Source: a virus (taxonomy: Duplodnaviria > Caudoviricetes). Taken from it: 31,310 nt of DNA. The DNA is taken from the IMG/VR virus record IMGVR_UViG_3300037424_000135, positions 1 through 31,310 of that record, one strand, 5' to 3'. Below the pieces are notes generated by a model. That model saw only the letters and a program-made list of their open reading frames with translations, had not been told where the DNA came from and made no database searches. Of this stretch, positions 2-18,695 are shown one piece after another; position 1 is the stretch's first letter; each line of letters begins with the position of its first letter. Both the position numbers and the translations under genes were made by a program.

Positions 2-2086
2 GAATACTATACAGGCCGTGCCTGCCGTGATGTCGTTATCTCTTATCCGTAATCCCCCCGCATACGCAGAATCCCAAAGAGTGCCACTGCCGAGAACACC
101 GTTCACGTTAATCTCTATACCAATCGCCGCCGTAGGATAATCGGAGGCAAGAACGCTTGCAGTACCGATGTCTCGGAACAGGGAGACAATCGTATTGCTG
201 TCGATGATGACCGGGTGCGTTAGCCCATAGTTGAACTGCTCAATTCTAATCGCTTCAGCATCCCCGGTATAGCTTGAGTCGGAGTCGTTTATATCACCAT
301 AGATGCGGATGTCATTATTGCGGATCACGAGGTTGGCGATTGTCTCTCGCCCCTTGATCGCTGTTGAGGAATGATATGCTCCCGCCCAGCCCTTGTGGGT
401 GATGATGTCGTTACCGTAAATCCAGTATGCGCCTTCTTCGGTTGTGTCTACACCCCGGCCCGTCATAAAGATACCGTCGCCGCCCCAATGGGTATCGCCC
501 ACGCGGAAGGTGTTGTTGGTTATCTTCGCGTTAGTGCCGACAAGCGTACCGTCGCCGTTGCGGATAGCTACTCCATAGCATTGCTCGGCGTTGGTGTATG
601 TGCCGTCACCCGTCCGCGTGTTGTAGGCATCGAGATAGATGTAGCTGGAATCCAGCCAGAACTTGCCATTAACACCCTCGAAGTAGTAGTTAACCCAGGG
701 GGCCGCAATGGTGGAGCACTTATCTATCTTGGCGTGGTAGGCGAAGGGGATACCGTTTAGGGTTGTCTTGTCATCACAGTTGGAAAAGACGACCATCGCG
801 TACAAGGCAAACTGCTGGCGGTCGTCAAGGGCCTCGGTACGGTTGTCGAACGTGATATTGCGGAGATAGAAGTTGTTGCCGCCTGAACTCCACCACGATT
901 GGGAGTTGCGCCCCTGAGTCCTGATGTAACAATCTTCTATGGTGATGTCGTGACTGAGCGTACCGACCCGAATAGCGTTCGCGCTTACATCGTAAGAGTC
1001 CAACAGACGCGCCGCAACCCGAATGTCCTGCACGAAGTTTAAGTCACGAACGGTGATATTATAGTTTCGGTTGGCGGGGTTGAGCGCAAAAGTGCTGGCC
1101 GTCCCCGCCGTGTCCCAATAGATTGAATCATTAGCGGGGTCCGACCCGTAGATCGTGATGTCGTGAACGTAAGCCGCGAGAGCTATACCGTTACCCGCAG
1201 AGTACAGGTCGTCCCTCACCACATAGCACGTATCGCTTACACTACAGGTGTACGGCAGGCCGGTAATCTCTATCGGGCTGCCGCAGACGGGATCGGTCGT
1301 GTAGAACACCACAAGTTTCGGGTGCGTCGTGTCGTCGGCATGATAAGGCGAATACCACGCCCGTTGTTTGGCCGCATTGGTAGAGTCTGCCGCCGTTTCG
1401 GGAGTGAACAACAGGACGCCGTAGTTATCGCCCAGGTCGGTCCAGTCCTCAACGACACTGGCCGCGAGTCTCAGAGTATCCCAAACGTAAGGCGTTGTGC
1501 CCACGCTGATCGTGTCCATATTGGTAGCAGAGCGGGATGTCGGCGTACCACAACCAACGTTGGTCCATTGCGTTTCAACCCAAATTCCAGGGTCTTCTTC
1601 GGTCGCTATGGTGTCGCAAAAGTACCACGTCGGCGTACCGTGCCGCCAAAATTCACCACCAAAGCCGTTCTCACCCCACGTCGTATCGGAGCCGACGATG
1701 AAATATCCGACCCATCGCCAAGATTCCATGACACGAGCCGCGTAGACTGTGACATTACCCGTCCAGTCTGAAGCGTCCGGGCCAGTAGGGGCAAACCGCT
1801 TGAGGATCAGATAGGCCGAGTCAACCGTCGTGTTGCTGTCGGCATCGAACTGCGGGGCGCTGCCTAAGCTGTCGAACTGAATCAAGGCACGGATGGCCGC
1901 GAACTGCGATATGGATTGATCTTTAACGTACAGGTATTCACCCGCAGCGAAGGAGAAGTCGTCTATGTTTTCGATGATCGGTGAGGCGTTCGTGTGCCCG
2001 TACTGTGTGACGCCATGTTGGAGCGTCAGGGTGGACCCCGATACCGACCCGACAAGCAGAAGGAGAAACGCCGCTATTCTACCCAC
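2..2086 (-). CDS. Signal-peptide-bearing DNRLRE-domain plus right-handed beta-helix protein (tail spike/depolymerase-like); 3' end runs off the window
   Basis: Missing from the ORF track because it has no stop in the window. My translation from GTG 2086 is open for 695 codons: MGRIAAFLLLLVGSVSGS..., DNRLRE motifs (RALIQFD, VDSAYL, VEDW..NYGVLL, HPKLVVFY), then beta-helix rungs (ITVRDLNF, ITIEDCYI, KITNNTF, IYGNDI, VIRNNDI, IIDSNTI, RIRDNDI). Confidence 0.85.
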   Translation of the reverse strand, partial: MGRIAAFLLLLVGSVSGSTLTLQHGVTQYGHTNASPIIENIDDFSFAAGEYLYVKDQSISQFAAIRALIQFDSLGSAPQFDADSNTTVDSAYLILKRFAPTGPDASDWTGNVTVYAARVMESWRWVGYFIVGSDTTWGENGFGGEFWRHGTPTWYFCDTIATEEDPGIWVETQWTNVGCGTPTSRSATNMDTISVGTTPYVWDTLRLAASVVEDWTDLGDNYGVLLFTPETAADSTNAAKQRAWYSPYHADDTTHPKLVVFYTTDPVCGSPIEITGLPYTCSVSDTCYVVRDDLYSAGNGIALAAYVHDITIYGSDPANDSIYWDTAGTASTFALNPANRNYNITVRDLNFVQDIRVAARLLDSYDVSANAIRVGTLSHDITIEDCYIRTQGRNSQSWWSSGGNNFYLRNITFDNRTEALDDRQQFALYAMVVFSNCDDKTTLNGIPFAYHAKIDKCSTIAAPWVNYYFEGVNGKFWLDSSYIYLDAYNTRTGDGTYTNAEQCYGVAIRNGDGTLVGTNAKITNNTFRVGDTHWGGDGIFMTGRGVDTTEEGAYWIYGNDIITHKGWAGAYHSSTAIKGRETIANLVIRNNDIRIYGDINDSDSSYTGDAEAIRIEQFNYGLTHPVIIDSNTIVSLFRDIGTASVLASDYPTAAIGIEINVNGVLGSGTLWDSAYAGGLRIRDNDITAGTACIVF

Positions 2087-3030
2087 GTCACCGTCCTTCT
2101 CCATACGGGGTTAGTCTCAAAGTAGCATCGCACGAGGGCGCACTGTTGGGCCGTCACAGAGTCAGGGCCAGCGGTTGTGGCCCCGATATAAGACAGTAAG
2201 TTTGTCCCGTATAGTGTGGTCGAATCACGATTCCAGGGGTACAGATTCGGGGTAGAGCAACTATCCACGTCCCAATTCGCCGCATAAGGCGCAGAGACGT
2301 TAAACTCCGGGTCCGGCGGAGTGTCCTCACAGACATCGTTCGTTGACCACGCAAGGGCGGTTGCGGAATCGGCGTCTATACCCGCCTGATCCAGCCAGTA
2401 GTTATAGGGGTACTCGTGCGCCGCACTCGCGCATGAGGGTACTTCGGTTACGTTTAGGTGAGTATGCCGCAACCCCCACTCATGACCCAATTCGTGCCGA
2501 ATCACTCGCCAGTCATTTGTCGGAGCCGCCGTCAGGGTGATGAACCCCGCGTCCCACACCGTATCCGCACCCGCTCCGTAGACCGCATGGTACTGGCCGG
2601 CAGTTGAACCAAGCCCCGCCACGAGGTTTACACTTGAATAGGGGACGGCGGGGACAAGGGCCTTGTATCCCGTTTCTGTCTGGCTGATTTCGTACTGGAC
2701 ATAAGCGTTAATCGCCGTGTTCGCAATAACGTTCGGCGTCACCTTGAATCGCAATTCTGTAAGCGCGTATGATTCGTTTAACCCCGTTTGCAGGGCCGTC
2801 ACGAGGGAATCGAGATTGCTCGCGGAATAGGTCGCCCCGCCCATGAAATGCGTCGAGTCCCCGTTGCCCGCGATGTTGAGCGTGATATTCACGGTATCTA
2901 CCCCACCACCAACCGAATCGGCGTGGTACTGCATCCGAACGGGCCTACAGTCACAGGAATCCCGTTGTGCCCCGTCATAGGCCGTCGCCGGAGCCGTCAA
3001 GATGAGCAATGCCAGTATCGTTCTCATCAT
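2074..3030 (-). CDS. Secreted metzincin zinc protease, M43 (pappalysin/ulilysin-like)
   Basis: Signal peptide MMRTILALLILTAPATA; zinc motif HELGHEWGLRH(TH); downstream D-x-C-x-DTPP, NLLSY (Met-turn position) and T-x-x-Q motifs in M43 order. Confidence 0.8.
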   Translation of the reverse strand: MMRTILALLILTAPATAYDGAQRDSCDCRPVRMQYHADSVGGGVDTVNITLNIAGNGDSTHFMGGATYSASNLDSLVTALQTGLNESYALTELRFKVTPNVIANTAINAYVQYEISQTETGYKALVPAVPYSSVNLVAGLGSTAGQYHAVYGAGADTVWDAGFITLTAAPTNDWRVIRHELGHEWGLRHTHLNVTEVPSCASAAHEYPYNYWLDQAGIDADSATALAWSTNDVCEDTPPDPEFNVSAPYAANWDVDSCSTPNLYPWNRDSTTLYGTNLLSYIGATTAGPDSVTAQQCALVRCYFETNPVWRRTVTWVE

Positions 3031-3797
3031 TCCCCCATCAGCAAGGCGCGACGTCGCGACCCGGTAGCCGCTTCCGGTGGTGTGTAGTAAATAGTGAGGA
3101 TGGGACGGACTCCCGTGTTCGTCGTGTATTCGGTAGATGCGAACGTCGTAAGGACATTATCGTTTATCCAGATCATCCAACCGAAGTTATTCCCCAGCCC
3201 ATTAATCAGAGAGTCAACGTGTGCAATTGCCGCCGCAGAAGTAAGCCGGAACTCGATATCGACCCCGTTTTCCGCTGGTACTACTGATGTGGCAAGCGGC
3301 GTCGCGTAGGCGTCACTTAAGTCTACGTCATCAAGCGATGTGGCGCAATTCGCTCCCCACGCCGAGTCAGTCTCCTCGTCAGGTTCATTGCCCTCCCACC
3401 GATCCGCGCCGTTGCCCATGTGGACTTGCCCCGCCGTACCCGTCCCCGTTCCCTCATACCATGCGACCTTCAGGCGGCGCAACCGAGCGTCCGTCGCCCC
3501 ATTCTGTGTTATGCAGTGAATACGAAAGATCGCTGAATCAAAGACGTTGCCCGCGTTCAGCGTCAGCAGCGTGTCCCAATTCGTGAACTTCCACACGGCT
3601 GTTCTGTTTGATCCCGCCAGACTGTCGAGGATAAACGTCGTGGCCCCGCCGTAGTTATAGTCGAAGTATGGGGAGTTCCCCCGCATCCCCATATCTTCCA
3701 TGTAATGCGAAGCGCCAGTTTCCTGAATAGCCAGAGTCTCGGCAGACGCCGACGCACAGAGGCACATGAGTAGTATTGTCAGCCGTTTTAGAACCAT
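3027..3797 (-). CDS. Signal-peptide-bearing DNRLRE-domain protein (candidate tail accessory/carbohydrate binding)
   Basis: Start reassigned to ATG 3797 (MVLKRLTILLMCLCASASA). Motifs RTAVWKF, FDSAIFRI, WYEGTG, NNFGWMI, FASTE..RPILTIYY; C-terminal RRRALL tail. Confidence 0.75.
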   Translation of the reverse strand: MVLKRLTILLMCLCASASAETLAIQETGASHYMEDMGMRGNSPYFDYNYGGATTFILDSLAGSNRTAVWKFTNWDTLLTLNAGNVFDSAIFRIHCITQNGATDARLRRLKVAWYEGTGTGTAGQVHMGNGADRWEGNEPDEETDSAWGANCATSLDDVDLSDAYATPLATSVVPAENGVDIEFRLTSAAAIAHVDSLINGLGNNFGWMIWINDNVLTTFASTEYTTNTGVRPILTIYYTPPEAATGSRRRALLMGE

Positions 3798-3877
3798 GCC
3801 CGTAGCTCCCATGACCAGACGAGGAGGAGGATTATGACAAGGGCCACGCAGATGCGGCCCCAAGTTTGGGTTGTCAT
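3788..3877 (-). CDS. 29-aa single-pass membrane peptide
   Basis: MTTQTWGRICVALVIILLLVWSWELRAWF; TGATG coupling to the upstream gene and overlap with the next start; fills the gap exactly. Confidence 0.55.
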   Translation of the reverse strand: MTTQTWGRICVALVIILLLVWSWELRAWF

Positions 3878-4149
3878 CAAAACGCTCCTAACATTTTGAA
3901 CGTGGCGACAATACCGACAATGGCCGCGATAGCCTTGAGGGTCGGGACGCTGATCCTTTCGAGAAAACTCCGGTTGGATTGCCATGTCTCTACGTCCCCT
4001 ACGCGAGTTTCGACCTTCCCTACGCGCCCATTTTGCGTGTCAAGACGCGTGTTGATGCCGGCGAACCCAGTAGCCATCGTATTCTTGATCCCCTCGACGG
4101 CCTCCGCCATCCTGCCGAAATCGTATGCACTTACCTCGTTGTCTGCCAT
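3877..4149 (-). CDS. Holin-like/XhlA-like small membrane protein
   Basis: Coiled coil (RLDTQNGRVGKVE) followed by one C-terminal hydrophobic helix (AIAAIVGIVATFKMLGAF); located right after the ejection genes. Confidence 0.5.
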   Translation of the reverse strand: MADNEVSAYDFGRMAEAVEGIKNTMATGFAGINTRLDTQNGRVGKVETRVGDVETWQSNRSFLERISVPTLKAIAAIVGIVATFKMLGAF

Positions 4150-4157
4150 GCGTCCCC

Positions 4158-7100
4158 CTATTTCGGTATCTCATCTATCTTCTGCTGTATCTTCGTGAGA
4201 CGCTCTTGCGCCTTCACTTTCGTAGTCGCCGCCGTCTTCGGACTGGTGATCTGCTCGACCAGTGAGATCATCTGGCCCTGCAAGAAGGCCCGGTACTGAT
4301 CGTCGTCACGCAACTTGATGTTGAACGGCGTCCAGAACTGCACGTCCACTTCGAGGTCTTTGTACTTCAAGGGCTGTTTCGTGGAGCGGTCCACCTTGGC
4401 CGGCAACATCTGGCTGAACGCCGGGTTCTCTGAGGCGTAGCCGTAGAAGAAGTTCTGCGCGAACCCAGACTTGACATCGTAGGTGCGCCGCTTCACGGGG
4501 TCGGTCTTGCGCTTGAGATACTGCAAGATCGGGGCATACGGCTGGAACTGCGCGACAAACTTACCCAACCGGGCCGATGTCGGCATATCCCGCTCATATT
4601 GATCGCGCACGTCACGGATGATGTCAGCCGCCTGTACCGCCGGACCAAACCCGTACATGGCATCGGCGTACTTGGCGACGTAATCAAAGTCGCCCTCCAG
4701 TAACCGCCGCCCAAGCGCCGCCTCGCGCACTATCGGCAACTGCGTCACATCGACCCAAATGCGTTGGCCGTCAATCTCCCCTACCGGAGTCCGCCCGTAG
4801 ACATCATTCTTGAGATCGTCGTTTTTATTCTGCATGTCGGACGTGAGGATGTAGCCCACCGTCCCAAGGGTGACTGCCCGTGCCAAATGAGCCGCCCGAG
4901 CAGCGCGTTCAGCGGAGGTCAAGCCGGAGTGGAGCACGTTGGCCTTGCTCGGATTGAGCAGGTCCATCGTCAACCGCGTCCCCTTATACATATAGGACGG
5001 GAACGACACGAGGGCGCGTCCCGCCTTAGACCGCTTCATACCGAGAATGAACTTCGGTAGATTGTTGTAGTCGAAGTTGACTCGATCCATCTCCACGTAG
5101 GCGTCGCGCAACACTTCACGCGGCGGGTCCTTGATGATCGACGCCTCAATCGCGGCATCACCGCCCGCAATCTCTTTCGCTTTCGCCCGGATCACCGCGT
5201 CAAACGTGCGCCGCTTCTGGAATAGTTCCACCGCCTTGAAGCCAGCCAGTAATTCGTTATAGCCGGGCATCGCGCCCTTTTGCTCAAACTGCGCGAAGAA
5301 GTTATCGCCAAGGCGCTCGGACTGGATCGACTTACGGGCTGCGGGTAACAGACTCTTATAGTAGGACTCGACATCGGCCTTCACCTTGGTCATATCTTTC
5401 GTGAAGACGCCCTCATAGAAGTCCTGCAAGAGCTTGGTGCTGAACTGTATCTCACCGGACACGAAGTTGAGCGCCGTCGTCTTGGGCCTCAGCAGCATCG
5501 TGGCGAGGAGATTATTCACGCCCCACGCTGCCACATTGTCGCCCATCTCAAGTAAGGCCAAAGTGGTCGGGGTCACGACCGTCTGCCCCTGTCGCGCCTT
5601 GAGTATCCCGCCGAGATCCTCGGCGATGATCTGCGGCACGATCACCCGTTTGCCGGACATGGCAAACCCGGCGCTCTTAACCTCAGCCAAGTCAATCTCT
5701 ACGCCGCGCTCCTTGAGAAGCGGCTCCGCCATCTCAAGTATTTTGCCAAAGTTCTTGGCACCCTCGGTCCATTCGACTACCGCCCAACCGTCAGGGATCG
5801 TTTCGCCACGTTTTAGTGTCCGCGCCGCGATGCCGATGAGCTTGGCCGCCGCCTCGTTATGGATCACTTCCGTACCGAGATCGACCGCGACCTTCTCCTC
5901 GGACATGACAAGGGACTGTATCTCCTCACCTGATTCGGCCAAGATACCCGTCCGGTACTTGCGCTCAGGCGCGACACGCTTCTTCAACCGATTCCAGAGA
6001 CCGCCAAAGCGAGTCTTGCCGGCCCCAGGAGCCGCGAAGCTGTGGACGTACCCCTCAACCCTCTGTGATATGCCCGCCTCAGTCGCCAAGTCCTGCATTC
6101 GCTTGACGTACTCCTTGACGTAGGACTGAGCATCAGCGGATAGGCCCTCAAACGAGGCGCGGGCCTCTTTGGGTGTGATCTTCCGGTAGTATTGCGTCTT
6201 GCCCTTGTAGGCACCCTCAGTCAGTTCTTCGCCCGCGATCAGGCCGTCGGGTATCTCCGCTCCCTCTTTGTAGACGCCCGCCCGCTGCATCGTGCCGAAC
6301 TCGATAGTCCCATCATTGGCGATGGACTTGATGCCCTTGACCGCCTGAAACATCTTCGCGTCGATGTCGGAGCCGATAGTTTTGAGTAGCTCAATGTCGC
6401 GTTTCTTGACAGCATCTCTAATCTGCTTTGCCGCGCCACCCTTGACGAACTGGTAGTCCTTGTCGGACCACTCCGGCTTACGCGGTATGCGCTCCGTCTC
6501 TTTCAGGAGCAAGTCGCCAAACTGTTGCACCGCGTTCTCGTGCGCGACACGGCGGAGTATCGCCACTTCCTCGCCCGCTTCTCTGAGGGTGTGGTAAGCG
6601 TCTGCACCCTTTTCGGCCCCCATGCCGACTTCCTCGAAGCCTGCCTCCAACCGCTCAGAGATCGTGCCGAGCTTCATGGTGAGCCACCGCTTCACGCCGG
6701 CAGCCACACCTTCAGGCGTACCGGGATCGACGCCATACTTTTCCATCGCGGCTTTCGCGGCCTTGATCGGGTCAGGTCCCTTGCCAACTACGCCGATACC
6801 GCCGGAGCGTTCCTCTGGCTGAAGATTCAGCACAGTCTCAGCCGCACCCGGATCGGTGAGACGGTCAAACTCCGCCTGTTGCTCGGCCAACCGTTCGTTC
6901 AGTGTCACAATGTCGGCTTCAGCCTGTGCCCGCTGTTCGCCCGTGATTGTCTTTAGGTCTCGCGCCTGTTCTGCGACTTGTATAGCCTTTTTGGTGTGCG
7001 CGAGATTGCGGCCCGCGTCCGCCATGTCGTTCCCGGTCTTTATGACTTCAGGAACCGACGGCTGTGCAGGGACTTCTTGGGCCGTATGTCGAACCGAGCG

Positions 7101-8873
7101 CACGGTGCCCGCAGGTGTTTCAACGGGGGGCGGCGGGGAAACGTCCCGATTTCTCTGGATTTCGGGGACCGCCCCAACCGTTTCCTTGACTATCGGCCTC
7201 GCCATTGTCGCCTCAGCCTCAGCCAGGGCCTTCTCCTGATCGGCCAACTGCGTCCTCCAGTTGGTGATTATGTCACCGAGGGCCTTCTTGTCAGCCCCGC
7301 GCCGCACCACCTTCTGCTGTCCCTCTAACTTGCCGATCTGCTCGGTGTAGTTCTGGATGTCCGACTTGGCTGTCTCAGCCGTCTCTTTGGCGGCATCGAA
7401 AGCCTCTTGCGTGATCGGCTCGGTCGAGGGCTTGGCCGGCTCCACCTGCTCAGGCGCAGGGGTCACGTCGGTCGGCTTCTTCTCCGGCTCCAACTTGACC
7501 TTGCCCGTCTGCTCGGACACGATGTCCGATTGAATGTCCGGTTTCACCGATCCCACCACCACTTCGTTTGGAATCCGGCCGCCGCTAACGATCTCCCGCA
7601 ACTGGCCCGTATCCATTCGTACTAGTTCGTCGGGGGTAATCCTTGCCGCCAAATCAGGATTCATTTCCTGTAACTTGTTGGCTTCAATAACTAACTGGCC
7701 CCGCGACATTTGTTGTATATCCTCAATCTGGCCGTAACTTTCGGTAGTCGGCTCAAATGTAGACTTCTGGGGTCGCGTTGCCTTGCCTGCCCGCTCGATC
7801 CCGTCCGCCACATCCTGCACGATCTTGACTTCTTCCGGTGTGGCTATACCGCTCTTTTCAGCCCCTTTCGCCGCGTCCCGCAGACCCGTGGCCCGCTCGG
7901 TCATGCGGTCCATCGTCTTCACGCCGCCCTTAACAAAACCCGCCGCCATCATCACACCAAAGGGCAGGGCCGAGGGGGTCTCGTAGAGCGCGTTCATCGC
8001 TTTTTTGCGAAGTTCTTTACGGTCGATACCGCCCGTAGTCGCCAGTGTCGCCGGGGCCTGTGCCGTCTCAATCAGCTTGGTAATGACGTTGTTCGGTGAC
8101 CCGAAGAACTGCTCCGCCATGCCAGCCACCTGATCCGGCACGTTGGCGATCATGTCCGCCATGCCAGTTGCAACTTCCTTGATGGCTTGGTCCTTGCTCT
8201 GGCCGTACTTCTCGGAGTTGACCACGCGGTCGAGCGTCTGAGTGAGAAAGTCCATCGTGCCCGACAGAGCGTCGTTGACCATGTATTCCGCCGACCAAAT
8301 ACCCTGTTCGACCGCGCCGCCCGCCTTGAACGCCTGAGACGCCGAGTATTCTTCCGGCGTCATCGGTTCGGTCTTCAAGTCACGGCCCGGCGAGACCGGA
8401 TGTGGCGTCTCAGCTTTACGCTTGCGGAAATAGTCGGCAATAGGCTTGGTGGACTCAGCCACCACATCGGAGCCAGCCTTGAGTACGCCCGCCGCCCCCT
8501 TTGTGGCCTGATCGGATTCCTGTTGCGCCTCTTGCGCCGCCCTCTGTTGATCCTGCTCTCGCGCCGCCTCGTCGATCTGTGGGAACAACTGCCGCGCCTG
8601 AGTGAACTGCTTCTGCTCGTCCGGGGTCAGAGACTCAGGCGACATTAGACCGCGCATAAGCATATCCTGTCCCGCCTCAGACGACAGGAACAGGTTCTCC
8701 GGGCCAACTTCGGGCACCTGCATCATAGGGACGCCCTGAGCCGCCATACCCTGCCCTACTCGCGTACCCATTTCAGCCGTGCGCTGTTCGGTGAGCCACT
8801 TGGTATAAGCGGCCTTTTCGCCCGTCCGCTTTTCAGCGAGCCACTGAGTATATGCTTCTTTGTCTGACGCCAT
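4158..8873 (-). CDS. Large internal virion/DNA ejection protein (~1571 aa)
   Basis: Start set to ATG 8873 (TAATG overlap). Ala/Glu/Lys-rich helical protein with a hydrophobic C-terminal third; last and largest of three genes after the nozzle, the usual ejectosome position. Confidence 0.7.
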   Translation of the reverse strand: MASDKEAYTQWLAEKRTGEKAAYTKWLTEQRTAEMGTRVGQGMAAQGVPMMQVPEVGPENLFLSSEAGQDMLMRGLMSPESLTPDEQKQFTQARQLFPQIDEAAREQDQQRAAQEAQQESDQATKGAAGVLKAGSDVVAESTKPIADYFRKRKAETPHPVSPGRDLKTEPMTPEEYSASQAFKAGGAVEQGIWSAEYMVNDALSGTMDFLTQTLDRVVNSEKYGQSKDQAIKEVATGMADMIANVPDQVAGMAEQFFGSPNNVITKLIETAQAPATLATTGGIDRKELRKKAMNALYETPSALPFGVMMAAGFVKGGVKTMDRMTERATGLRDAAKGAEKSGIATPEEVKIVQDVADGIERAGKATRPQKSTFEPTTESYGQIEDIQQMSRGQLVIEANKLQEMNPDLAARITPDELVRMDTGQLREIVSGGRIPNEVVVGSVKPDIQSDIVSEQTGKVKLEPEKKPTDVTPAPEQVEPAKPSTEPITQEAFDAAKETAETAKSDIQNYTEQIGKLEGQQKVVRRGADKKALGDIITNWRTQLADQEKALAEAEATMARPIVKETVGAVPEIQRNRDVSPPPPVETPAGTVRSVRHTAQEVPAQPSVPEVIKTGNDMADAGRNLAHTKKAIQVAEQARDLKTITGEQRAQAEADIVTLNERLAEQQAEFDRLTDPGAAETVLNLQPEERSGGIGVVGKGPDPIKAAKAAMEKYGVDPGTPEGVAAGVKRWLTMKLGTISERLEAGFEEVGMGAEKGADAYHTLREAGEEVAILRRVAHENAVQQFGDLLLKETERIPRKPEWSDKDYQFVKGGAAKQIRDAVKKRDIELLKTIGSDIDAKMFQAVKGIKSIANDGTIEFGTMQRAGVYKEGAEIPDGLIAGEELTEGAYKGKTQYYRKITPKEARASFEGLSADAQSYVKEYVKRMQDLATEAGISQRVEGYVHSFAAPGAGKTRFGGLWNRLKKRVAPERKYRTGILAESGEEIQSLVMSEEKVAVDLGTEVIHNEAAAKLIGIAARTLKRGETIPDGWAVVEWTEGAKNFGKILEMAEPLLKERGVEIDLAEVKSAGFAMSGKRVIVPQIIAEDLGGILKARQGQTVVTPTTLALLEMGDNVAAWGVNNLLATMLLRPKTTALNFVSGEIQFSTKLLQDFYEGVFTKDMTKVKADVESYYKSLLPAARKSIQSERLGDNFFAQFEQKGAMPGYNELLAGFKAVELFQKRRTFDAVIRAKAKEIAGGDAAIEASIIKDPPREVLRDAYVEMDRVNFDYNNLPKFILGMKRSKAGRALVSFPSYMYKGTRLTMDLLNPSKANVLHSGLTSAERAARAAHLARAVTLGTVGYILTSDMQNKNDDLKNDVYGRTPVGEIDGQRIWVDVTQLPIVREAALGRRLLEGDFDYVAKYADAMYGFGPAVQAADIIRDVRDQYERDMPTSARLGKFVAQFQPYAPILQYLKRKTDPVKRRTYDVKSGFAQNFFYGYASENPAFSQMLPAKVDRSTKQPLKYKDLEVDVQFWTPFNIKLRDDDQYRAFLQGQMISLVEQITSPKTAATTKVKAQERLTKIQQKIDEIPK

Positions 8874-9853
8874 TAGAGTCTGCCGGTCTCTTTTAGCCAA
8901 GCCTCGTAATCGTCCTGTGTGCCCGGAAAGTCTTTCGGCTTTCTCGGGGCGGCCAAACCTGTCTTCTCTATCGCGGTCGCCTTGTCACCCTCGACCCGCT
9001 TGGTGACCATTGCTTCTTTGACTTCACCCGTCGCCTTGTCGCGGTACTTGTCGAAGACGGCCTGTGTCTTTTCGTCAATCTGCTCACCCGCCAGCCAGCG
9101 TTGCAGGTCGATGTCGAACGTTGCCACGTTGCCGCCGGCCATGATGTACTTGCCGAGTTCTTCATTCTGAAGCGTAGACCGGGCCGAAGTGATCGCCTTC
9201 ACATCCATGCCGTAGACACCATAGAGTTCATCCATCGATCCGCCGTTGGCGAGATAGTCAGCCCGGCGCTCGGCACCCTCCGCCCCGAACATGGTCTTAG
9301 CATCCACGAGATTGCCGCCCTCATCATGGAGGGCGCTGGCAAGAGCCTCACGCTTGATCGCGGCATCGGTCGGCTTATCGGCGGCACCGCCCGTACCCAT
9401 GAAATCACTTGCACCCTGCTTGCCGAGATACTTGGTCAACTGATAGCTCGATAATAGCTTCGCACCCTCACCCGGCTGGCCCAATGCCGCCGCCAGTTGC
9501 TCCGCCGTCTCAGGGGTCAATTCTACCTTCTCGCCCGCACTCCATCCGATCTTGAGGGCCTCTTGTGGATCGAGTACGCCCGCCTCATACGCCTGTTGGA
9601 CTTCCGGCGGTAACTTGGCAAAGGACAGGTCGGGCCGACCCTGCAACATACTGAACGGCACCGATGCCCCCGCGCCGGCCAGACCAGCCGCCGCAGTTGC
9701 CTTTGAGGACGAAGACGCCTTCGGGTTCAGGAGGAGCTTATACATCTCCGCGACCTGACCCTCACGATCCTTGCGCCGTTGTTCTGACCGCTTCTCCCGC
9801 CCCTTCTCCAAGAGCATCGGGAAGATCAGTTCTTCCAGTCCGAGTTTAGGCAT
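8873..9853 (-). CDS. Putative internal virion/ejection protein
   Basis: Helical Ala/Gly-rich 326 aa, middle gene of the post-nozzle trio. Confidence 0.55.
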   Translation of the reverse strand: MPKLGLEELIFPMLLEKGREKRSEQRRKDREGQVAEMYKLLLNPKASSSSKATAAAGLAGAGASVPFSMLQGRPDLSFAKLPPEVQQAYEAGVLDPQEALKIGWSAGEKVELTPETAEQLAAALGQPGEGAKLLSSYQLTKYLGKQGASDFMGTGGAADKPTDAAIKREALASALHDEGGNLVDAKTMFGAEGAERRADYLANGGSMDELYGVYGMDVKAITSARSTLQNEELGKYIMAGGNVATFDIDLQRWLAGEQIDEKTQAVFDKYRDKATGEVKEAMVTKRVEGDKATAIEKTGLAAPRKPKDFPGTQDDYEAWLKETGRL

Positions 9854-10418
9854 AGTTCACTCCGCCAGACGCCGTGTCGCCTCCGCCGAACAGCCCCATC
9901 TTCTGCATCATCAGGAACTTCGTGGCGAAATCTCCGCCCTCACCGAGAAGGTCAAACAACTGTTGCGTTCCAGTAGACGAGCCGGCCTGTCCGCCCACGA
10001 GCATTTGTAACGCCTGCATCATGGCCTGCTGGTTCTGTTGCTCTGCTTGCATTTTCATGGACTGGTAGCCGAGCATATTCTGGGAGCCTACCGTAGCCGC
10101 CGCCCGACCGATAGGCGCGTAGACCGATGAGTACAGGTTCTTGGTCGCCTCACCGGAAGATGACAGCCCACGAGACGCGAGATCGGCGTTGAACGCTTCC
10201 CGTCCGACCGGCAACTGCGCCATGATGTCGGCGATCTGCGCGTTGGAGTTCGCCGACCATGCGGCTTCACTCGGTATCGTCATGTTCATCCGCTGGCCGC
10301 GTATGACCTGCATGAGCATATCTTGGATTGACTTCGGCAGACCACCGCCACCGCTACCGAACAGTCGGCCCGCTATACTACCTGCGGCACCCAGAGCCGC
10401 TACAATAGGAAATGCCAT
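9846..10418 (-). CDS. Putative DNA transfer/ejection protein (P22 gp7-like pilot)
   Basis: N-terminus MAFPIVAALGAAGSIAGRLFG, ASRGL..SG motif, Gln/Met-rich tail; first gene after the nozzle. Confidence 0.65.
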   Translation of the reverse strand: MAFPIVAALGAAGSIAGRLFGSGGGGLPKSIQDMLMQVIRGQRMNMTIPSEAAWSANSNAQIADIMAQLPVGREAFNADLASRGLSSSGEATKNLYSSVYAPIGRAAATVGSQNMLGYQSMKMQAEQQNQQAMMQALQMLVGGQAGSSTGTQQLFDLLGEGGDFATKFLMMQKMGLFGGGDTASGGVNYA

Positions 10419-10427
10419 CTCGCTACC

Positions 10428-12890
10428 TCACTTTTTCCCGTCGTCCCACACCATGTAGCCGATGTCGTAGCCCGTGATCCGGTAGTTGCCGACACCCTTG
10501 AAATCTTCTATCCGCAATGAGAAGTTCTCACATATCAGATTGACCGCCACCCGGTCCCGGTCTTGATCGGTGAACACCGGCTTGATATAGGCCGTGTCCA
10601 CCTGGTCGCCGTCGTTCTCGTAGAACAGGAGGCGGAGCGAATCCACCGTACCCGTCCCGAACAGGTCCACCCACAACACCTTCTCGCGCACCGGATCATC
10701 AAAGAAGAACTTGGATTGGTAACTCGCCTGTATCTTCGTGGTCCCATCCAGCGTGTCCGCGTCCGCATAGTTCCAGCGAAACACCGTGTCTGTCTCGGTG
10801 AGAATCAGCGACCGATCCGTCGAGTACGCCGTCCAGTCTTGCGCCGTGTCGTAGGCTATCGCGTCCCGCATGGCAAAGTTGTATGAGGTCCAGTGGGGCG
10901 AGGGGCGGAGCGAGTACACCAGCGTCCGGTTATTGACCGTATCGCCTATCGCCAGCGACCACCAGAGTTCATCCCCGACCGACCGGAGAACGCTTCGAGA
11001 GATATACTGTGACGCCGAATCGACTGTCTCTTGTATCGCCGCGCTCAGTGGTTGCGGCTTACCCAACTGGTACACGCCGTCGTTGCCGACAAAGTAGACG
11101 CCGAAGTTGTCCTTGCAGTAACCGCGCTCGGCCACGAGACCGACCCCGCTCATCAGTTGGCTCAAGCGATAGTCGCTAAACGTAAACCCGGAGATCGCCC
11201 ATACGCTGTTCTTCTTGAACACGACCAACTGATCGGCGGGAAGGGCACTGTCATAGTAGTCTACGTCCGCGATGGAAAGCAGGCCCGTAATGCCATCCCC
11301 ATCCTGTGAGGCGATTCGCACAAACTGATCCGGCGGGAACAGTGTCGGATAGTTCGTATTTGAATAGTACAAGTAGTCCGGCAACTCAGGATTGCCCGCC
11401 GCCCAGAGACGGTCGGCATGATGCTCAATGATAGAGGGCTGGAAAACGATAACTGAATCGTCGGGGCACCGCTGTTCTGGCGTCTTAATATAGAACCACT
11501 GTTCGCCGACACAATCTGGTATGCAAACGTCGTGGTTGGTCGTGTCTATATGTGTTGCATCCTCCCAACTCCCACCATCAACGATGCTATCATACCCAGA
11601 CTGAGTGAACGTATGAATACGATACCAACGCGGCGATATACTATCGCTACAATTATCGCCACCCGTAGTATCATAAAACTCACCCGCAAGGCGTCTCCAT
11701 AATTCAATCTCGCTGATGCCTGATTGGGGCAGTGGTGGAAAACTATCAATGGTTACCCGGCGCAGATAACTGTTAACTATCGCGCCTGTCATATTAAGCG
11801 AATCGGCCTCCATCGCAGTTGAATATGAGCGGCGGCCCAACGAGTCCACATATACCAACACATAAGCAACCCAACAGAACTTCGCGCTATCACCGGGAAG
11901 CCCGAACAGAATACTGGTAGATCCTCCCGTAACGATGTTGGTCCCGAATCCACCGGGAGGACGAATACGGGTATAGTGTCCCTGACTATACGAACCACCT
12001 TCCGTATTTCTCGTGTGCCAACCATACCGCGAACCAGCGTGAGCAAGACTAAGTGAGGCGGTTGGGGTGTTGTCAATATAGTAAGATATGGACGACGAGA
12101 TCGTGGCGACCTCGTAGTATAGCAAGTCCGGCAATTCTCGCCGGATAATTCCAATGGAATCTTGACTCGACAAAATCCCCGTATCCATAATTAGGGCGAC
12201 TTGGCCGTTATCAACGTAAACGGGGAACGACGGGGCAGAGAATACGCTGGTGTCGTCTGTCTCCGTATCAATATACGCATACTTATATACGAACCGCCCG
12301 CTCAATGCCCCCCCACCGGCGAGAGTTGTTGCCCGTGGCTGTCCGGCCGTTAAGGGACGGGCGGGAGCCGCTGAGGAGTCCGTCATATAAACAAGCTCAC
12401 TATTGGACTCGGCTATAAAGAGACGATGGTATATCTGGGTGCGATCTGTGGTTTGGGGGACGGTTAGGTTGCGCCACGGGCCATCAAATAACCGCGCCTT
12501 AACCAACTCGAAATCGTGTGTAGACGGGCCATACTTGACAAGTTGCTGCGTATTCTCGGAGATCGTGTCAGACTCGAACGCACCGTCGATCTGTCTGACG
12601 GCGAATAGGCTTTTATCCCGATAGTGTGACCATGGGAATATCGCCCCCACATACGGCGCACCCGTATCGGCCCACAGATAGCCGAGTCCCGGTCGTCGAT
12701 CCAGTACGCCGCCTACAACGTCATAGTTCGATAGACTCACCGCCCCGTTGTCCGGCACAAAAGCATTGGCGACACCGTTCACGATGCCGCCACTGAAATC
12801 GCGCACAGACTTGACCTGCACCTGCCCAAAAGCGGGTATTGCCAGTGCAAGAACGAAAAAGATCGTCAATCTGTTCAGGGCTTGAGCCAT
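10428..12890 (-). CDS. Tail nozzle/stabilization protein (P22 gp10 / T7 tubular-B-like) carrying an N-terminal signal peptide
   Basis: Typical nozzle N-terminal motifs DFSGG and N....G.L.RRPG, and beta-propeller motifs (RLWAAG, LYYS, ITGL, LVVFK, GVG, VYF..DGVY), preceded by MAQALNRLTIFFVLALAIPAFG|Q. Confidence 0.8.
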   Translation of the reverse strand: MAQALNRLTIFFVLALAIPAFGQVQVKSVRDFSGGIVNGVANAFVPDNGAVSLSNYDVVGGVLDRRPGLGYLWADTGAPYVGAIFPWSHYRDKSLFAVRQIDGAFESDTISENTQQLVKYGPSTHDFELVKARLFDGPWRNLTVPQTTDRTQIYHRLFIAESNSELVYMTDSSAAPARPLTAGQPRATTLAGGGALSGRFVYKYAYIDTETDDTSVFSAPSFPVYVDNGQVALIMDTGILSSQDSIGIIRRELPDLLYYEVATISSSISYYIDNTPTASLSLAHAGSRYGWHTRNTEGGSYSQGHYTRIRPPGGFGTNIVTGGSTSILFGLPGDSAKFCWVAYVLVYVDSLGRRSYSTAMEADSLNMTGAIVNSYLRRVTIDSFPPLPQSGISEIELWRRLAGEFYDTTGGDNCSDSISPRWYRIHTFTQSGYDSIVDGGSWEDATHIDTTNHDVCIPDCVGEQWFYIKTPEQRCPDDSVIVFQPSIIEHHADRLWAAGNPELPDYLYYSNTNYPTLFPPDQFVRIASQDGDGITGLLSIADVDYYDSALPADQLVVFKKNSVWAISGFTFSDYRLSQLMSGVGLVAERGYCKDNFGVYFVGNDGVYQLGKPQPLSAAIQETVDSASQYISRSVLRSVGDELWWSLAIGDTVNNRTLVYSLRPSPHWTSYNFAMRDAIAYDTAQDWTAYSTDRSLILTETDTVFRWNYADADTLDGTTKIQASYQSKFFFDDPVREKVLWVDLFGTGTVDSLRLLFYENDGDQVDTAYIKPVFTDQDRDRVAVNLICENFSLRIEDFKGVGNYRITGYDIGYMVWDDGKK

Positions 12891-13729
12891 ATCTTGATTC
12901 GCGGGTTAATAGTGAAGGTGGCCGTGCTGTCTCGATCTACCACCGCCGAATCCGCCAGGATGAAGTCGATGTACCAGTCCTGCAAAAACAGCGAATCGGT
13001 GTCCACGTATGGAATCGCCAAACTGTCAGGGATCGCCCATGCCTGAGAATCAATCAGCATCCGGCGACCGTCCATCATGCTGTATATCACCGTAGTCACG
13101 GTGTCCTCATCGCCGAAGTCCGTACCCGCCCCACTATATGTGGCCGCGACAAGATGGATCGACCCACAGATCGCGTCTATCCGCATAGCCGATCCCATGC
13201 TGATTGTCCCGGTGGCGCGGCGAGAGGTAGTCTGCGCGAGGGTGAGGTCGGGCGTGAACGTAGTGGTAGCTGTCTGTCCGGCTGCGACAATCGCACTATC
13301 CGCCCAGATGACATACAGGATGAGACTGTCGCCATTTGTAGCAAGAGAATCAGTCTCAAAATATGCCACGGTGATCGTGTCGGGAAGAATTGTGAGCGTC
13401 GAGTCTATAAGATGCCGAGTCGCTCCCTTCCGCCCATAGACTTTCGTGATGACAGTATCGACTGCACCAAACAGACCACCCTTTGTATATGACGATGACA
13501 GCAATGTAAGTGTCCCGCTGATGCCCTCGATGTTCGTCATAATCCCCACGTTGACCGTGAGCGTATCGCGCCGGTCGGTGGCCGCGATGCTCAAGGGGGA
13601 AGTCGTGACATACGATCCCGTACCGCTGATCGTCACCGTAGTCGCCTTGTCATATTTGTCTGAGGAGGCAGCCCATACGCTCGATCCGATCAGAGTGAGA
13701 ACTGCCAGTAGCACAAACCATTTCTTCAC
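12875..13729 (-). CDS. Signal-peptide-bearing beta-rich virion-module protein with a two-fold internal repeat
   Basis: GGAGG RBS; MKKWFVLLAVLTLIGSSVWA; Thr/Ser-rich; two alignable ~110-aa halves; lies between adaptor and nozzle. Confidence 0.75.
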   Translation of the reverse strand: MKKWFVLLAVLTLIGSSVWAASSDKYDKATTVTISGTGSYVTTSPLSIAATDRRDTLTVNVGIMTNIEGISGTLTLLSSSYTKGGLFGAVDTVITKVYGRKGATRHLIDSTLTILPDTITVAYFETDSLATNGDSLILYVIWADSAIVAAGQTATTTFTPDLTLAQTTSRRATGTISMGSAMRIDAICGSIHLVAATYSGAGTDFGDEDTVTTVIYSMMDGRRMLIDSQAWAIPDSLAIPYVDTDSLFLQDWYIDFILADSAVVDRDSTATFTINPRIKIWLKP

Positions 13730-14385
13730 TTCGACACCTCCGCCGATTTAGTTATCCCCAAATCCTGTCTCACCTGCATCTGTACCGCCTGAGCCTCTTG
13801 AAACCGCTTCAGGCTGCCGAGATAGTATGAAAACGCTTCCTCGATCACGAACACCTGCAACCGCTCCGCCAGCCGGCAGGTATCCGTCAACGTATCCAAG
13901 TCAGCCGGGTCCGCGACGTAGAACAGCCGCACCCGATTTGTTTCCTGATTCAGATTCTTGCAGTAGATTCTCGCGCTGTCCGTGTTCGTCCAGTCGGTAA
14001 AATACTGCGGCTTGGCACCCAACTTCGCTTCTTCGGGGATGCTGCCGAAATACTCGTTTGGCAGGACTGGCTCCCACAGGTAGCTGACCCAGACCATGAC
14101 ACCGGTTTCGCGTACAAAGTCGCTCGGCAGTAGTTCTCCTAAGCTGTCGGCGACGGTCCACGTTATGTTATATGACTTCTGGTAGCTGCCTGTGAGTCCA
14201 TTGATTTTGTCCTGCGCCTGATTCATCCAGTACCGCACGTCCGTATCCGTGAAGCTGGACTGCGCCGTATCCGTCTCGCCCACCCGACTGCGAAACATCG
14301 CAGTAAGATCAGAGAGGGTCACGGATGACGCTATCGAAGTGGAGGTGACCCACAACATCAAGAAGATGGCGATGCGTCGCATCAT
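13726..14385 (-). CDS. Head-tail adaptor/tail tubular-A-like protein with an N-terminal signal peptide
   Basis: After MMRRIAIFLMLWVTSTSIA comes the usual adaptor start (TLSDL...RSRVGE...TDTDVRYWMNQAQDKI), then LPSDF, KPQYF and RLFYVADP motifs. Confidence 0.75.
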   Translation of the reverse strand: MMRRIAIFLMLWVTSTSIASSVTLSDLTAMFRSRVGETDTAQSSFTDTDVRYWMNQAQDKINGLTGSYQKSYNITWTVADSLGELLPSDFVRETGVMVWVSYLWEPVLPNEYFGSIPEEAKLGAKPQYFTDWTNTDSARIYCKNLNQETNRVRLFYVADPADLDTLTDTCRLAERLQVFVIEEAFSYYLGSLKRFQEAQAVQMQVRQDLGITKSAEVSK

Positions 14386-15059
14386 GAACCCCCTCTGAAC
14401 CTTGAGTGCATCCGTCTGTTCAACCGCTGCACGTACCGCGTCGGCATGAGCGCCATGTGCGATGCGCGGGTAGATGGAGATTCGCGGATGCCTGATTTCA
14501 TGCGTTCGTAGATCACCAACGACTGAGCCGCATCAGGATTGAACTGCTCGAACATCGACCGCACACCTTCCTTGATCGCACGAGTGTTGATAATCAGGTC
14601 GGTGTCGGTCGTCTGCGGTTTCCGGTAGTAGAAGAACTTGTAGGTCCCTACCGCCGTCGGCAACGCATTGAGGATGAGGTAGTCGCCGGGTCCAGTCGCT
14701 CCATCCATGCGGGTCTCGATCATGCCGTACCAGTTGCCCGTGTATTCCGTGTCCGCCATGCGGCGGTAATACTCGGACTGGCTGATGACCTCAACCTCGC
14801 GGACGAACGCTCCGTCCGTATCTACCTCGATGATCGGGCCTTTAATTGTCGCAAAGTCGCCGGGGATTTTGTACGCCATAGACGACGTACTCAGTGTAAT
14901 TGGATACACCTTGCTCAATCGCTCAAATCGGCAATCGTTTTGCGACAATATGTCAATCGTGATCTCGCCGACAGCCCGCTCGACTCTCGAACGTAGCTCA
15001 GGCGAGTTCTGACCAAACTCGGTCATCAGTTCAGTGGTGATCTGCGCGGGTGACGCCAT
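14382..15059 (-). CDS. Head-tail adaptor-like protein, no signal peptide
   Basis: Helical N-terminus, YKIPGDF, LILNALP and FFYYRKP motifs paralleling the neighbouring adaptor; basic C-terminal tail. Confidence 0.65.
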   Translation of the reverse strand: MASPAQITTELMTEFGQNSPELRSRVERAVGEITIDILSQNDCRFERLSKVYPITLSTSSMAYKIPGDFATIKGPIIEVDTDGAFVREVEVISQSEYYRRMADTEYTGNWYGMIETRMDGATGPGDYLILNALPTAVGTYKFFYYRKPQTTDTDLIINTRAIKEGVRSMFEQFNPDAAQSLVIYERMKSGIRESPSTRASHMALMPTRYVQRLNRRMHSRFRGGS

Positions 15060-18449: not shown

Positions 18450-18695
18450 CTACTTCTTGTTTGGGTGATTCTGAGCGTTGGTCACGTATCTCCGCAACCG
18501 ACCCCAGAAATCTTCAAAGTTCTGAATGAGCGCGTGCTGCGCGTCTCGTTCATCTTTAGCTAACTTCCAATACTGCTCCCTCTCCGCCGCTATCACCTCA
18601 TCCGCATAGCTGCTCAGTTGCTTCCACGCATGACTATGCTCCAACTGCTCAAAGAGTACGTGCGACGGGATCGGCTTCTGTGCGGGTTCGGTCAT
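18450..18695 (-). CDS. Small helical post-portal protein
   Basis: 81 aa, L..S.AWK pattern, usual position between portal and scaffold in podophages. Confidence 0.6.
   Translation of the reverse strand: MTEPAQKPIPSHVLFEQLEHSHAWKQLSSYADEVIAAEREQYWKLAKDERDAQHALIQNFEDFWGRLRRYVTNAQNHPNKK

Follow-up and report, generated by a model that had tools for sequence, protein, structure and literature searches.

In an uncultured phage group that, judged from its genes, is a short-tailed family, the tail nozzle, the putative second adaptor ring and the appendage proteins are likely exported, cleaved and given O-glycans by a Bacteroidota-type system in the host periplasm, and then probably joined to a cytoplasm-built head once the inner membrane gives way during lysis; we consider this reading reasonably probable. 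Precisely, predicted leaders and a roughly fourfold excess of a glycosylation motif are found on the tail proteins and not on the head proteins, hence the tail probably takes shape, and receives its sugars, outside the cytoplasm. The DNA analysed (the window) is the whole stretch of 31,310 nt at positions 1 to 31,310 of the virus record IMGVR_UViG_3300037424_000135 (Duplodnaviria; Caudoviricetes). Tailed-phage particles are taken to be assembled entirely in the cytoplasm, and to our knowledge no part of a tailed phage is built outside it. We regard as evenly balanced the fuller reading of a two-compartment virion, in which the head would receive its DNA and its cap inside the cytoplasm, the entire tail, beginning with the second ring, would be secreted, coated with host O-glycans in the periplasm and joined at lysis, the motif would reveal a Bacteroidota-like system in an uncultured lineage, and the ejection protein would shun the motif. 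The novelty is the route, since nozzle, adaptor and motif are all of known kinds; in the open-access literature, searched mostly by listing, no description of such a route of tail export and host glycosylation was found.

Sequons in leader-bearing and leaderless proteins

We considered as a sequon any D-[ST]-[AILMTV], and as its expected number the mean of 2000 composition shuffles of each protein. Leaders were called by a hydrophobicity heuristic (false calls in 1 of 14 SU10 proteins and 0 of 20 crAss001 proteins) and by eye, all leaders and cut sites being predictions. Like Sec signals, the predicted leaders combine a basic end with a hydrophobic core, and small residues recur at -3/-1 at the fold boundary.

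The six leader-bearing proteins of the window (2594 aa) hold 59 sequons against 15.1 expected, and the seven leaderless ones (3986 aa) hold 10 against 10.2. Observed and expected numbers are 12/4.15, 8/1.51 and 5/1.07 for the leader-bearing proteins of 695, 318 and 256 aa, 18/4.16 for the nozzle, 12/3.14 for the 284-aa protein and 4/1.03 for the 219-aa adaptor (p from <0.0005 to 0.014 in the shuffles). For the leaderless proteins they are 3/1.49 (capsid), 1/1.49 (portal), 0/0.73 (adaptor), 0/4.01, 0/0.78 and 1/0.31 (ejection proteins) and 5/1.38 for the terminase large subunit (TerL), which is the exception (p=0.011). All the 13 hand counts of the sequence-only reading were exact on recount; the contrast that it drew from them, about one sequon per 44 aa against one per 400, stands as raw figures (1/44 and 1/399) and not in its ninefold size, since the composition-corrected excess is 3.9-fold and part of the raw gap is thus due to composition.

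The shuffle check with control motifs that the same reading had proposed left the excess in place: summed over the six leader-bearing proteins, E-[ST]-h occurred 4 times (6.2 expected), N-[ST]-h 4 times (8.4) and the reversed motif 11 times (14.9), the only control to rise being [ST]-D-h, found 5 times in the adaptor of 219 aa (1.0 expected). Among the 400 dipeptides D-S was the most over-represented and D-T the second. The signal is at the protein level, since the sites use the two Asp codons almost equally (30/29) and draw on both families of Ser codons (23 TCN, 12 AGY). N-x-S/T showed a small excess (431 against 365), and no disulfide signal was found, either in Cys content (1.0% against 0.9%) or in even Cys counts (24/45 against 29/60).

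In eight related genomes the second, leader-bearing adaptor had 41 sequons with 8.8 expected, and the first, leaderless one had 6 with 5.9; the other leader-bearing classes gave 133/28.4 (nozzle), 26/6.5 (small tail protein) and 266/74.4 (fibres), and the leaderless classes 15/13.3 (portal), 16/11.1 (capsid) and 12/9.6 (TerL, 7 genomes). The claim that sequon density tracks leaders holds within the eight genomes, where the TerL exception is only partly shared: it recurs in the closest relative of the window (5/1.4 each) and a family-wide excess is absent. The excess is seen in at least five unrelated classes of protein and, as far as the sequences tell, is restricted to leader-bearing proteins.

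The residue after D-[ST], which was not preset, was most enriched for L (6.9 observed/expected), followed by C (4.2), I (4.0), M and A (3.7 each), T and V (3.5 each) and S (2.2), the top eight being identical in 33 non-nozzle proteins; D, K, P, R, E, W, H and Y were at 0.1-0.4, and Asn was mildly raised (1.3-1.8) although outside the motif. All eight leading residues belong to the motif measured in P. gingivalis, D-S/T-A/I/L/V/M/T/S/G/F/C (PMC8729774; papers given by PMC number are cited for the available part of their text). At the first position the excess goes with Asp (3.8-4.3) and not with Glu (0.6-0.7), and in B. fragilis Glu is likewise no substitute for Asp (PMC12871550). The Bacteroidota system is reported to act on non-cytoplasmic proteins only (PMC12871550).

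The proposal that export lets the phage borrow host glycosylation keeps part of its support, an excess that survives the composition and fold controls, tracks leaders and reproduces a measured Bacteroidota motif, and loses its argument from Gln after the leader. In Bacteroidetes Gln follows the cut in most signal-peptidase-I substrates (the Q-rule; PMC5837995). Here it follows the predicted cut in only 2 of 7 window leaders, of which one (AFG|Q) does belong to the nozzle and the other (AQA|Q) to a beta-barrel that holds no sequon and stands outside the finding. With heuristic cut sites, the Q-rule does not hold across the family either: of the 38 leaders outside the nozzle family, the script places Gln at +1 in 3 and inspection by eye in about 7, and Gln is common only in the nozzles (20 of 47 by script).

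Nozzle, adaptor rings and neighbouring genes

The 820-aa protein (10428..12890; like all the genes given below, on the minus strand) has a predicted Sec leader at residues 1-22 (12825-12890, cut AFG|Q). Its AlphaFold model (pLDDT 84.5) matched the Pa223 tail with Z 30.6 (rmsd 2.9, 450 residues aligned), the crAss001 muzzle with Z 27.6 and SU10 with Z 27.3, and the best 13 rows were all phage tails. On this model the protein is a podovirus nozzle with a beta-propeller fold, of the P22 gp10 / T7 gp12 / SU10 gp17 kind, and from fold and gene order it would be a hexamer docked on an adaptor ring. The structural alignments begin at residue 23, against target residue 2, and the leader-like N-termini are conserved and end where the modelled fold starts.

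The homologous nozzle region holds 335 sequons with 81.6 expected in 58 family members, and 79 with 79.4 (0.99) in 60 leaderless relatives, the 58 sequences not being independent since, in a tree of the shared C-terminal region (97 of 135 sequences, with every third family member), leader-plus-sequon nozzles form only one or two clades. The second-clade nozzles P0076 and P0095 are enriched without a called leader. The 890 sites of the nozzle family are spread over 188 alignment columns, of which 95 are singletons. Columns in which no more than 13 of the 53 sequences have a site contribute 418 by themselves, against a total expectation of 209; several other columns are near-fixed (48, 45, 44 and 40 of 53). 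Residues 500-599 have only 1 of the 890 sites, and, considering secondary structure only, coil contains 11 of the 18 sites of the window's nozzle and 68 of its 132 Ser/Thr in total. In each of two complete relatives there is a single nozzle match, with a leader in both.

The putative second adaptor-ring protein (219 aa, 13726..14385), with a predicted leader at about residues 1-20, is tentatively assigned from the Pfam family SU10_adaptor (PF24175), which matches 6 of 8 orthologues and not the window's own copy, and from a low-confidence model (pLDDT 50.9; best Z 7.7) for which the 22 best matches all come from necks or tails of phages or GTAs; a PDB sequence search with it gave no match. The first adaptor-ring protein (225 aa, 14382..15059) is leaderless and matches SU10_adaptor below the cut-off (E 0.0015); its arginine-rich C-terminal tail, conserved in 9 aligned sequences, is a possible temporary DNA plug. 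Compared as profiles, the two adaptors matched only weakly (probability 36.8%, 27 columns), and a complex prediction with two copies of each scored 0.00.

Four other leader-bearing proteins carry the motif excess. The 284-aa one (12875..13729) had no Pfam or PHROG match, Atlas matches of 0.81-0.85 that are leads only, and no tblastn match in the loci of relatives. The 256-aa appendage candidate (3027..3797) starts at an ATG with a GGGAG site upstream and has two homologues (79% and 53%); relatives' proteins from its region match CBM96/Disaggr_repeat. The 318-aa protein (2074..3030) is zinc metalloprotease-like (HExxHxxGxxH; Pfam Reprolysin_5 E 2.8e-6, Peptidase_M57 E 1.5e-4), and the fibre or spike candidate of at least 695 aa (2..2086, running off the contig end; 4.0-4.2 sequons expected) had no Pfam match and, by tblastn, weakly matched leader-bearing proteins in two relatives. 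On the window's own proteins Pfam did not bear out the labels previously given to three of them, DNRLRE (256 aa), M43 (318 aa) and beta-helix (695 aa): the 318-aa protein matched M12/M57-type zinc-protease families, and the others had no match. The leader-bearing outer-membrane beta-barrel (28132..28659) has Atlas structure matches of TM 0.73-0.79, several of them named PF13505 OMP barrels; similar leader-bearing barrels in five genomes have 0 sequons with 2.4 expected, which is not significant alone, and P. gingivalis outer-membrane barrels are likewise without sites (PMC8729774).

The large leaderless ejection-type protein (1580 aa, 4158..8900; role suggested by position and size) is sequon-poor, with 0 against 4.0 in the window and 9 against 23.0 in 6 genomes. 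Two smaller ejection-type proteins (8873-9853 and 9846-10418) are also leaderless, and a homologue of the second, of 190 aa, matches Pfam T7_gp14 (E 1e-4). The 90-aa protein at 3877..4149, with one hydrophobic segment (19-residue hydropathy 1.91) and a match to phrog_5225 (function unknown), is a holin candidate. The leaderless controls were the major capsid protein (16432..17619; Pfam SU10_MCP E 8.7e-14), the portal (18692..20728; phrog_449, with an orthologue matching SU10_portal at E 2.7e-7) and TerL (20721..22499; phrog_2 E 7e-16).

Host and comparison with known systems

The beta-barrel gene points to a host with an outer membrane. In a GTDB scan, one locus among 47 pattern matches was a 16-kb contig of a Phycisphaerae MAG (Planctomycetota), the only one of 201 Planctomycetota genomes with a full-length nozzle (four others had weak partial matches). 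We rejected this MAG as the host: the first 4.3 kb of the contig are free of long ORFs of host type, and the MAG's own leader-bearing ORFs, 37 of them in 13 stretches of 20 kb, have 49 sites where 52.0 are expected, an absence of motif bias from which we read the phage contig as misbinned. No tRNA was found in 15 loci, and searches of cultured phages gave only two records each for nozzle and TerL. The host would be a bacterium with an outer membrane and the motif system, more likely of a lineage with a weak Q-rule than of the core Bacteroidetes. That no phage glycosyltransferase is seen in the window, as the sequence-only reading noted, agrees with a Pfam scan of 105 ORFs, which found none, and with the absence of PF00535, PF00534 and PF13231 from all five phage records searched, two of them complete relatives. 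Release by lysis fits with the NlpC/P60 hydrolases encoded in relatives whose genomes are complete or nearly so.

Bacteroidota O-glycosylation (PMC12871550, PMC8729774) is alike in the three-residue motif, the +1 ranking, the use of Asp and not Glu, the limitation to leader-bearing proteins and the absence from the outer-membrane barrel; it differs in that the candidate substrates here are phage tail parts, known from genes alone, and in the weak Q-rule. The podophage tails of SU10 (7z47), crAss001 (7qok), Pa223 (9nwi) and Sf6/P22 share the nozzle fold (Z 25-31), the SU10-type capsid and adaptor families and the gene order, and crAss001 also has stacked paralogous rings (PMC10172136); however, their nozzles and rings are leaderless and unenriched (7/4.6 for the crAss001 muzzle, 2/4.2 for the SU10 nozzle), and in the available text of the crAss001 paper 'signal peptide', 'glycosyl' and 'glycan' have 0 matches. 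The cultured Bacteroidota phage phi18:3 of Cellulophaga (KC821620) has MS/MS-annotated virion proteins with Sec-like leaders, gp085-gp087, and is thus a precedent for leader-bearing proteins ending up in a tailed virion. These are only three proteins, all accessory; in the part of the genome analysed, the 8 remaining annotated structural proteins lack leaders. Sequons are depleted in the three (3 against 9.8 expected), a counterexample showing that export alone does not bring sequons.

In mycobacteriophages, Freeman et al. (2023) reportedly described phage-encoded, cytoplasmic glycosyltransferases acting on capsid and tail tube. These phages are alike in bearing sugars on tailed-phage virion proteins (PMC12582341, PMC11256854), whereas here none of the three glycosyltransferase families was found and the sites are on exported proteins. 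Short motifs of virion proteins are targets of a host enzyme also in the haloarchaeal pleolipovirus HRPV-1, whose spike carries host glycan, and in the mycobacteriophage tail protein Gp34, which is host-methylated (PMC10384203; PMC13445384); HRPV-1 is, however, an enveloped archaeal virus with N-glycans and Gp34 a case of methylation, and neither, in the available text, exports the core tail of a tailed phage.

Proposed route and its alternatives

In the route that we propose, the head would be filled with DNA in the cytoplasm and closed there by the leaderless adaptor, with the arginine-rich tail of this protein possibly keeping the DNA inside before the nozzle docks. Podophage heads without a nozzle leak DNA (P22), hence such a plug has to be assumed. 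Tail parts would be exported by Sec and cleaved by signal peptidase, and a host periplasmic enzyme would transfer glycan onto them; head and tail would join at the interface of the two rings, after permeabilisation of the inner membrane and before rupture of the outer one. The glycans would most likely stabilise and shield the tail, with sites gained by selection.

A composition artefact of Ser/Thr/Asp-rich beta proteins is barely credible: composition accounts for the step from a ninefold raw gap to a fourfold corrected one, but the remaining excess is measured against shuffles with flat control motifs, and the fold-matched leaderless nozzles, at 0.99, refute it. The proteins could instead be exported and glycosylated and yet reside in the envelope, where they would form a channel through which heads leave or serve as superinfection decoys. 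The dense sequons that in P. gingivalis mark periplasm-resident, not abundant surface proteins (PMC8729774), and the avoidance of the motif by the leader-bearing virion proteins of phi18:3, speak for this, but in eight genomes the genes lie between those for capsid and ejection proteins, as is usual in podophages, the nozzle has retained the complete podophage fold, and in the complete genomes, with a single nozzle match each, the virion would have no other nozzle; we hold this alternative to be rather unlikely.

It is quite unlikely, in our view, that the N-terminal helices are uncleaved anchors on the cytoplasmic face of the inner membrane, with cytoplasmic assembly and a motif unused or read by a cytoplasmic enzyme. 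No head would then have to cross a membrane and no plug would be needed, and cleavage is only predicted; against this stand the Sec-like form of the leaders, their small residues at the fold boundary, the cytoplasmic paralogues without excess and the match to a system reported to act only on non-cytoplasmic proteins (PMC12871550). Similarly improbable is that D-S/T-hydrophobic serves metal binding, turn capping or a non-glycan modification in exported proteins: the near-fixed columns may be structural and the motif is read from sequence, but nozzles that share the fold and lack a leader show no excess, at least five unrelated classes are enriched, half of the nozzle sites occur where the alignment is poorly conserved, and the +1 ranking agrees with that measured in glycoproteomes.

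If the proposed export and glycosylation of the tail is true, it would be an additional morphogenesis route for Caudoviricetes, in which the core tail machine, beyond fibres, is sent through the secretion pathway and the phage wears host glycan without encoding sugar enzymes. If the virion is indeed made in two compartments, the ejection protein would shun the motif to escape modification while crossing the periplasm of the next host. Leader and motif bias together are a sequence signature that may narrow the hosts of uncultured phages. The exported tail proteins may be dense natural substrates for finding the oligosaccharyltransferase of Bacteroidota O-glycosylation, still undiscovered (PMC12871550), and the presence of the motif would, if the reading is true, reveal Bacteroidota-like O-glycosylation in an uncultured lineage.

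Genes of the window and identity of the nozzle and adaptors

The window is the entire virus record (31,310 bases), with an estimated completeness of about 60%. Its minus-strand genes encode a terminase, a portal, a scaffold, an SU10-type capsid, two adaptor-type proteins, a 284-aa protein and an 820-aa protein, together with three ejection-type proteins, a candidate holin and three candidate appendage proteins, of which the third is truncated by the contig end. Upstream of the terminase, on the same strand, are GroES (27475-27765), a sigma-70-type factor (26446-27177), a dATP/dGTP diphosphohydrolase (25714-26091) and an HTH-metallophosphoesterase gene (24437-25717). Each start that encodes a leader (predicted Sec-type signal) has a ribosome-binding site or overlaps the upstream gene. 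The gene order is common to the window and seven related genomes or contigs, two of which are complete at 52 kb. Searches of cultured phages found no close relative, two records matching 15% of the nozzle and two matching 30% of TerL.

The 820-aa protein (10428-12890, minus strand) has a confident predicted fold (pLDDT 84.5) that matches podophage nozzles, precisely Pa223 (Z 30.6, rmsd 2.9 over 450 aligned residues), the crAss001 muzzle (27.6) and SU10 (27.3). The structural alignments begin at its residue 23, against target residue 2, which points to residues 1-22 being an addition ahead of an intact fold. The leader-bearing 219-aa protein (adaptor 2; 13726-14385, minus strand) is probably a second adaptor ring: six of its eight orthologues match SU10_adaptor, and its model, poor as it is (pLDDT 50.9), gave neck or tail entries in the top 22 rows (best Z 7.7), with alignments again beginning late, at about residue 20. 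An arginine-rich C-terminal tail (14382-14460, minus strand, in the adaptor alignment A9) is conserved in all nine sequences of the leaderless adaptor 1 (225 aa; 14382-15059, minus strand) and is absent from adaptor 2. The 284-aa leader-bearing protein (12875-13729, minus strand) had no match in the fetched relatives; it looks like two similar halves, and its weak leads in the Atlas (0.81-0.85) are small virus proteins, among them a cluster with Bbp16 in 15% of its members.

Sequon excess in leader-bearing proteins

The sequence-only reading had reported exported proteins packed with the Bacteroidota O-glycosylation sequon D-[ST]-[AILMTV], and every one of its hand counts was exact on recount; Pfam gave the window's own proteins none of its labels M43, DNRLRE and beta-helix. 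Part of the raw contrast is due to composition, and a 3.9-fold excess remains once this is considered: pooling gives 59 sites for the six leader-bearing proteins, where composition predicts 15.1, and 10 against 10.2 for the seven leaderless ones, with TerL as the exception among the latter (5 against 1.4). Control motifs were flat (h, hydrophobic set: E-[ST]-h 4 against 6.2, N-[ST]-h 4 against 8.4, reversed motif 11 against 14.9), except for a raised [ST]-D-h in adaptor 2 (5 against 1.0). Codon use at the sites was mixed, which argues that the signal lies at the protein level.

Across the window and its seven relatives, adaptor 1 had 6 sites against 5.9, adaptor 2 had 41 against 8.8 and the nozzle 133 against 28.4. 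We considered the adaptor pair as the best control, these being adjacent genes of the same genome with probably the same fold. The other leader-bearing classes were also enriched (small tail protein 26 against 6.5, n=6; fibres 266 against 74.4, n=19), and the remaining classes gave 12 against 9.6 for TerL (n=7), 15 against 13.3 for the portal, 5 against 6.7 for the scaffold, 16 against 11.1 for the capsid and 10 against 14.2 for the auxiliary protein. It is from several unrelated protein classes inside each genome that independent weight comes.

We found 367 nozzle relatives among 1.84 billion representatives, and the family figures rest on the 150 matches listed. Among these, the leader heuristic was passed by 47 of the 58 close relatives of at least 700 aa, and in 3 of the 11 that failed it the start was called too short, since their loci show the full leader. 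Median excess among the matches listed was 4.3 (range 1.9-6.4) in close relatives and 0.92 in 68 distant ones without a called leader; for the shared C-terminal region, again among the matches listed, there were 335 sites against 81.6 in 58 family members, 79 against 79.4 in 60 leaderless nozzles and 41 against 25.1 in 17 distant leader-bearing ones.

We also ranked the residue following D-[ST] without presetting the motif. In family nozzles the ratios were L 6.9, C 4.2, I 4.0, M 3.7, A 3.7, T 3.5, V 3.5 and S 2.2, then 1.2-1.3 for N, G and F and 0.1-0.4 for D, K, P, R, E, W, H and Y. The same top eight were found in 33 non-nozzle leader-bearing proteins, and leaderless nozzles had no such ranking. 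All eight fall within the motif measured in P. gingivalis, D-S/T-A/I/L/V/M/T/S/G/F/C (PMC8729774). L/I/V/T/A/S account for 75-79% of all phage D-[ST] pairs, used or not, whereas the figure of about 90% in the review PMC12871550 refers to glycosylated sites. In 53 aligned nozzles, 890 sites occupied 188 columns, 95 of them with a site once, and residues 500-599 held 1 site. Poorly conserved columns alone held 418 sites against 209 expected for the whole protein (twofold), which suggests repeated gain of sites.

Could export by itself account for the excess? Three leader-bearing proteins of the cultured Cellulophaga phage phi18:3 (gp085-gp087, L032:2892-8584) carry a structural annotation from MS/MS, so that virion proteins with leaders have a precedent. 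They hold 3 sites against 9.8 (P=0.012), which shows that export is not by itself enough to bring sites. The nozzles and rings of crAss001 and SU10 are leaderless and unenriched. In a tree of the shared nozzle region all family members form a single clade (support 1.0). A second clade (0.94) holds 12 enriched nozzles, in two of which no leader was called. Seven further nozzles (P0108, P0109, P0099, P0005, P0111, P0136, P0143) bear leaders but show little or no excess, and are scattered among leaderless ones. Leaders thus seem to have had several origins and the motif bias one or two, and the scattered nozzles suggest repeated origins of nozzle export, in phages of other hosts. On a distantly related phage contig (L059:2932-9896), a 1822-aa leader-bearing protein has 45 sites against 10.5 and an adjoining 499-aa one 1 against 2.6. 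Overall, the sequences give strong evidence that a Bacteroidota-type glycosylation motif is under selection in predicted-exported core tail proteins; the sequon observation is borne out, and its interpretation as export with host glycosylation is supported in part only.

Host and probable source of any glycan

The searches made did not find the host, and a Phycisphaerae MAG was rejected because its contig with a relative is probably misbinned. The window encodes a small leader-bearing outer-membrane beta-barrel (28132-28659, minus strand), which implies a host with two membranes; four relatives have similar small leader-bearing proteins (L013:13708-14196, L014:17826-18320, L077:16331-16870, L081:1598-2080), near lysis genes, and none of the five genomes has a sequon in this protein. 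The argument for an FCB-group host from Gln after the leader proved weak: by script, Gln follows the heuristic cut in 2 of the window's 7 leaders, in 3 of 38 from outside the nozzle family and in 20 of 47 nozzles, or by eye in about 7 of 38 non-nozzle leaders and 32 of 46 nozzles. According to PMC5837995, Gln comes after the cut in most Bacteroidetes substrates, but its share ranges from 2% to 77% in the rest of the FCB group. A non-core FCB lineage would fit the combination of a strong motif bias and a weak Q-rule.

No phage glycosyltransferase was found: PF00535, PF00534 and PF13231 were absent from all five records (two complete), and Pfam matched none in 105 ORFs taken from four relatives, two of which have NlpC/P60 hydrolases and one an integrase. 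Any glycan would most likely come from the host. At L061:2902-8799, several ORFs that by eye resemble glycosyltransferases neighbour a distant TerL relative, and nearby proteins are not motif-enriched. A complete relative (G205) has a tyrosine integrase and a repressor-like gene (L077:18509-19573), therefore prophages with host flanks should exist.

In the largely open-access literature searched, we found nothing published on the export of nozzles or adaptors, nor on phage tails O-glycosylated by the host. The nearest reports are the following. Mycobacteriophage virions are reportedly glycosylated. Some phage genes of P. gingivalis, their function unknown, bear leaders (PMC10367356), a host methylates a phage tail protein (PMC13445384), HRPV-1 carries host glycans and the tailed archaeal virus HRTV-DL1 has some glycosylated structural proteins (PMC10384203).

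Proposed assembly in two compartments

We favour, with moderate confidence, an assembly in two compartments, joined at lysis. The head would be filled and capped by adaptor 1 inside the cytoplasm; adaptor 2, the nozzle and the appendages would be exported to the periplasm, where their leaders would be cut off and glycans added; and the capped head would meet these parts once lysis breaches the inner membrane. The main difficulty would be keeping DNA in a head without the nozzle, as P22 heads in that state leak it, and the arginine-rich tail of adaptor 1 is a candidate temporary plug.

The large ejection-type protein (4158-8900, minus strand, with orthologues in five relatives) is depleted in sites (9 against 23.0) and in D-[ST] (32 against 64.5), with E-[ST]-h normal (39 against 36.1); in crAss001, SU10 and phi18:3, four large proteins of this type together hold 16 against 20.2. 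It is possible that this protein avoids the motif, and hence modification, during its transit of the next host's periplasm.
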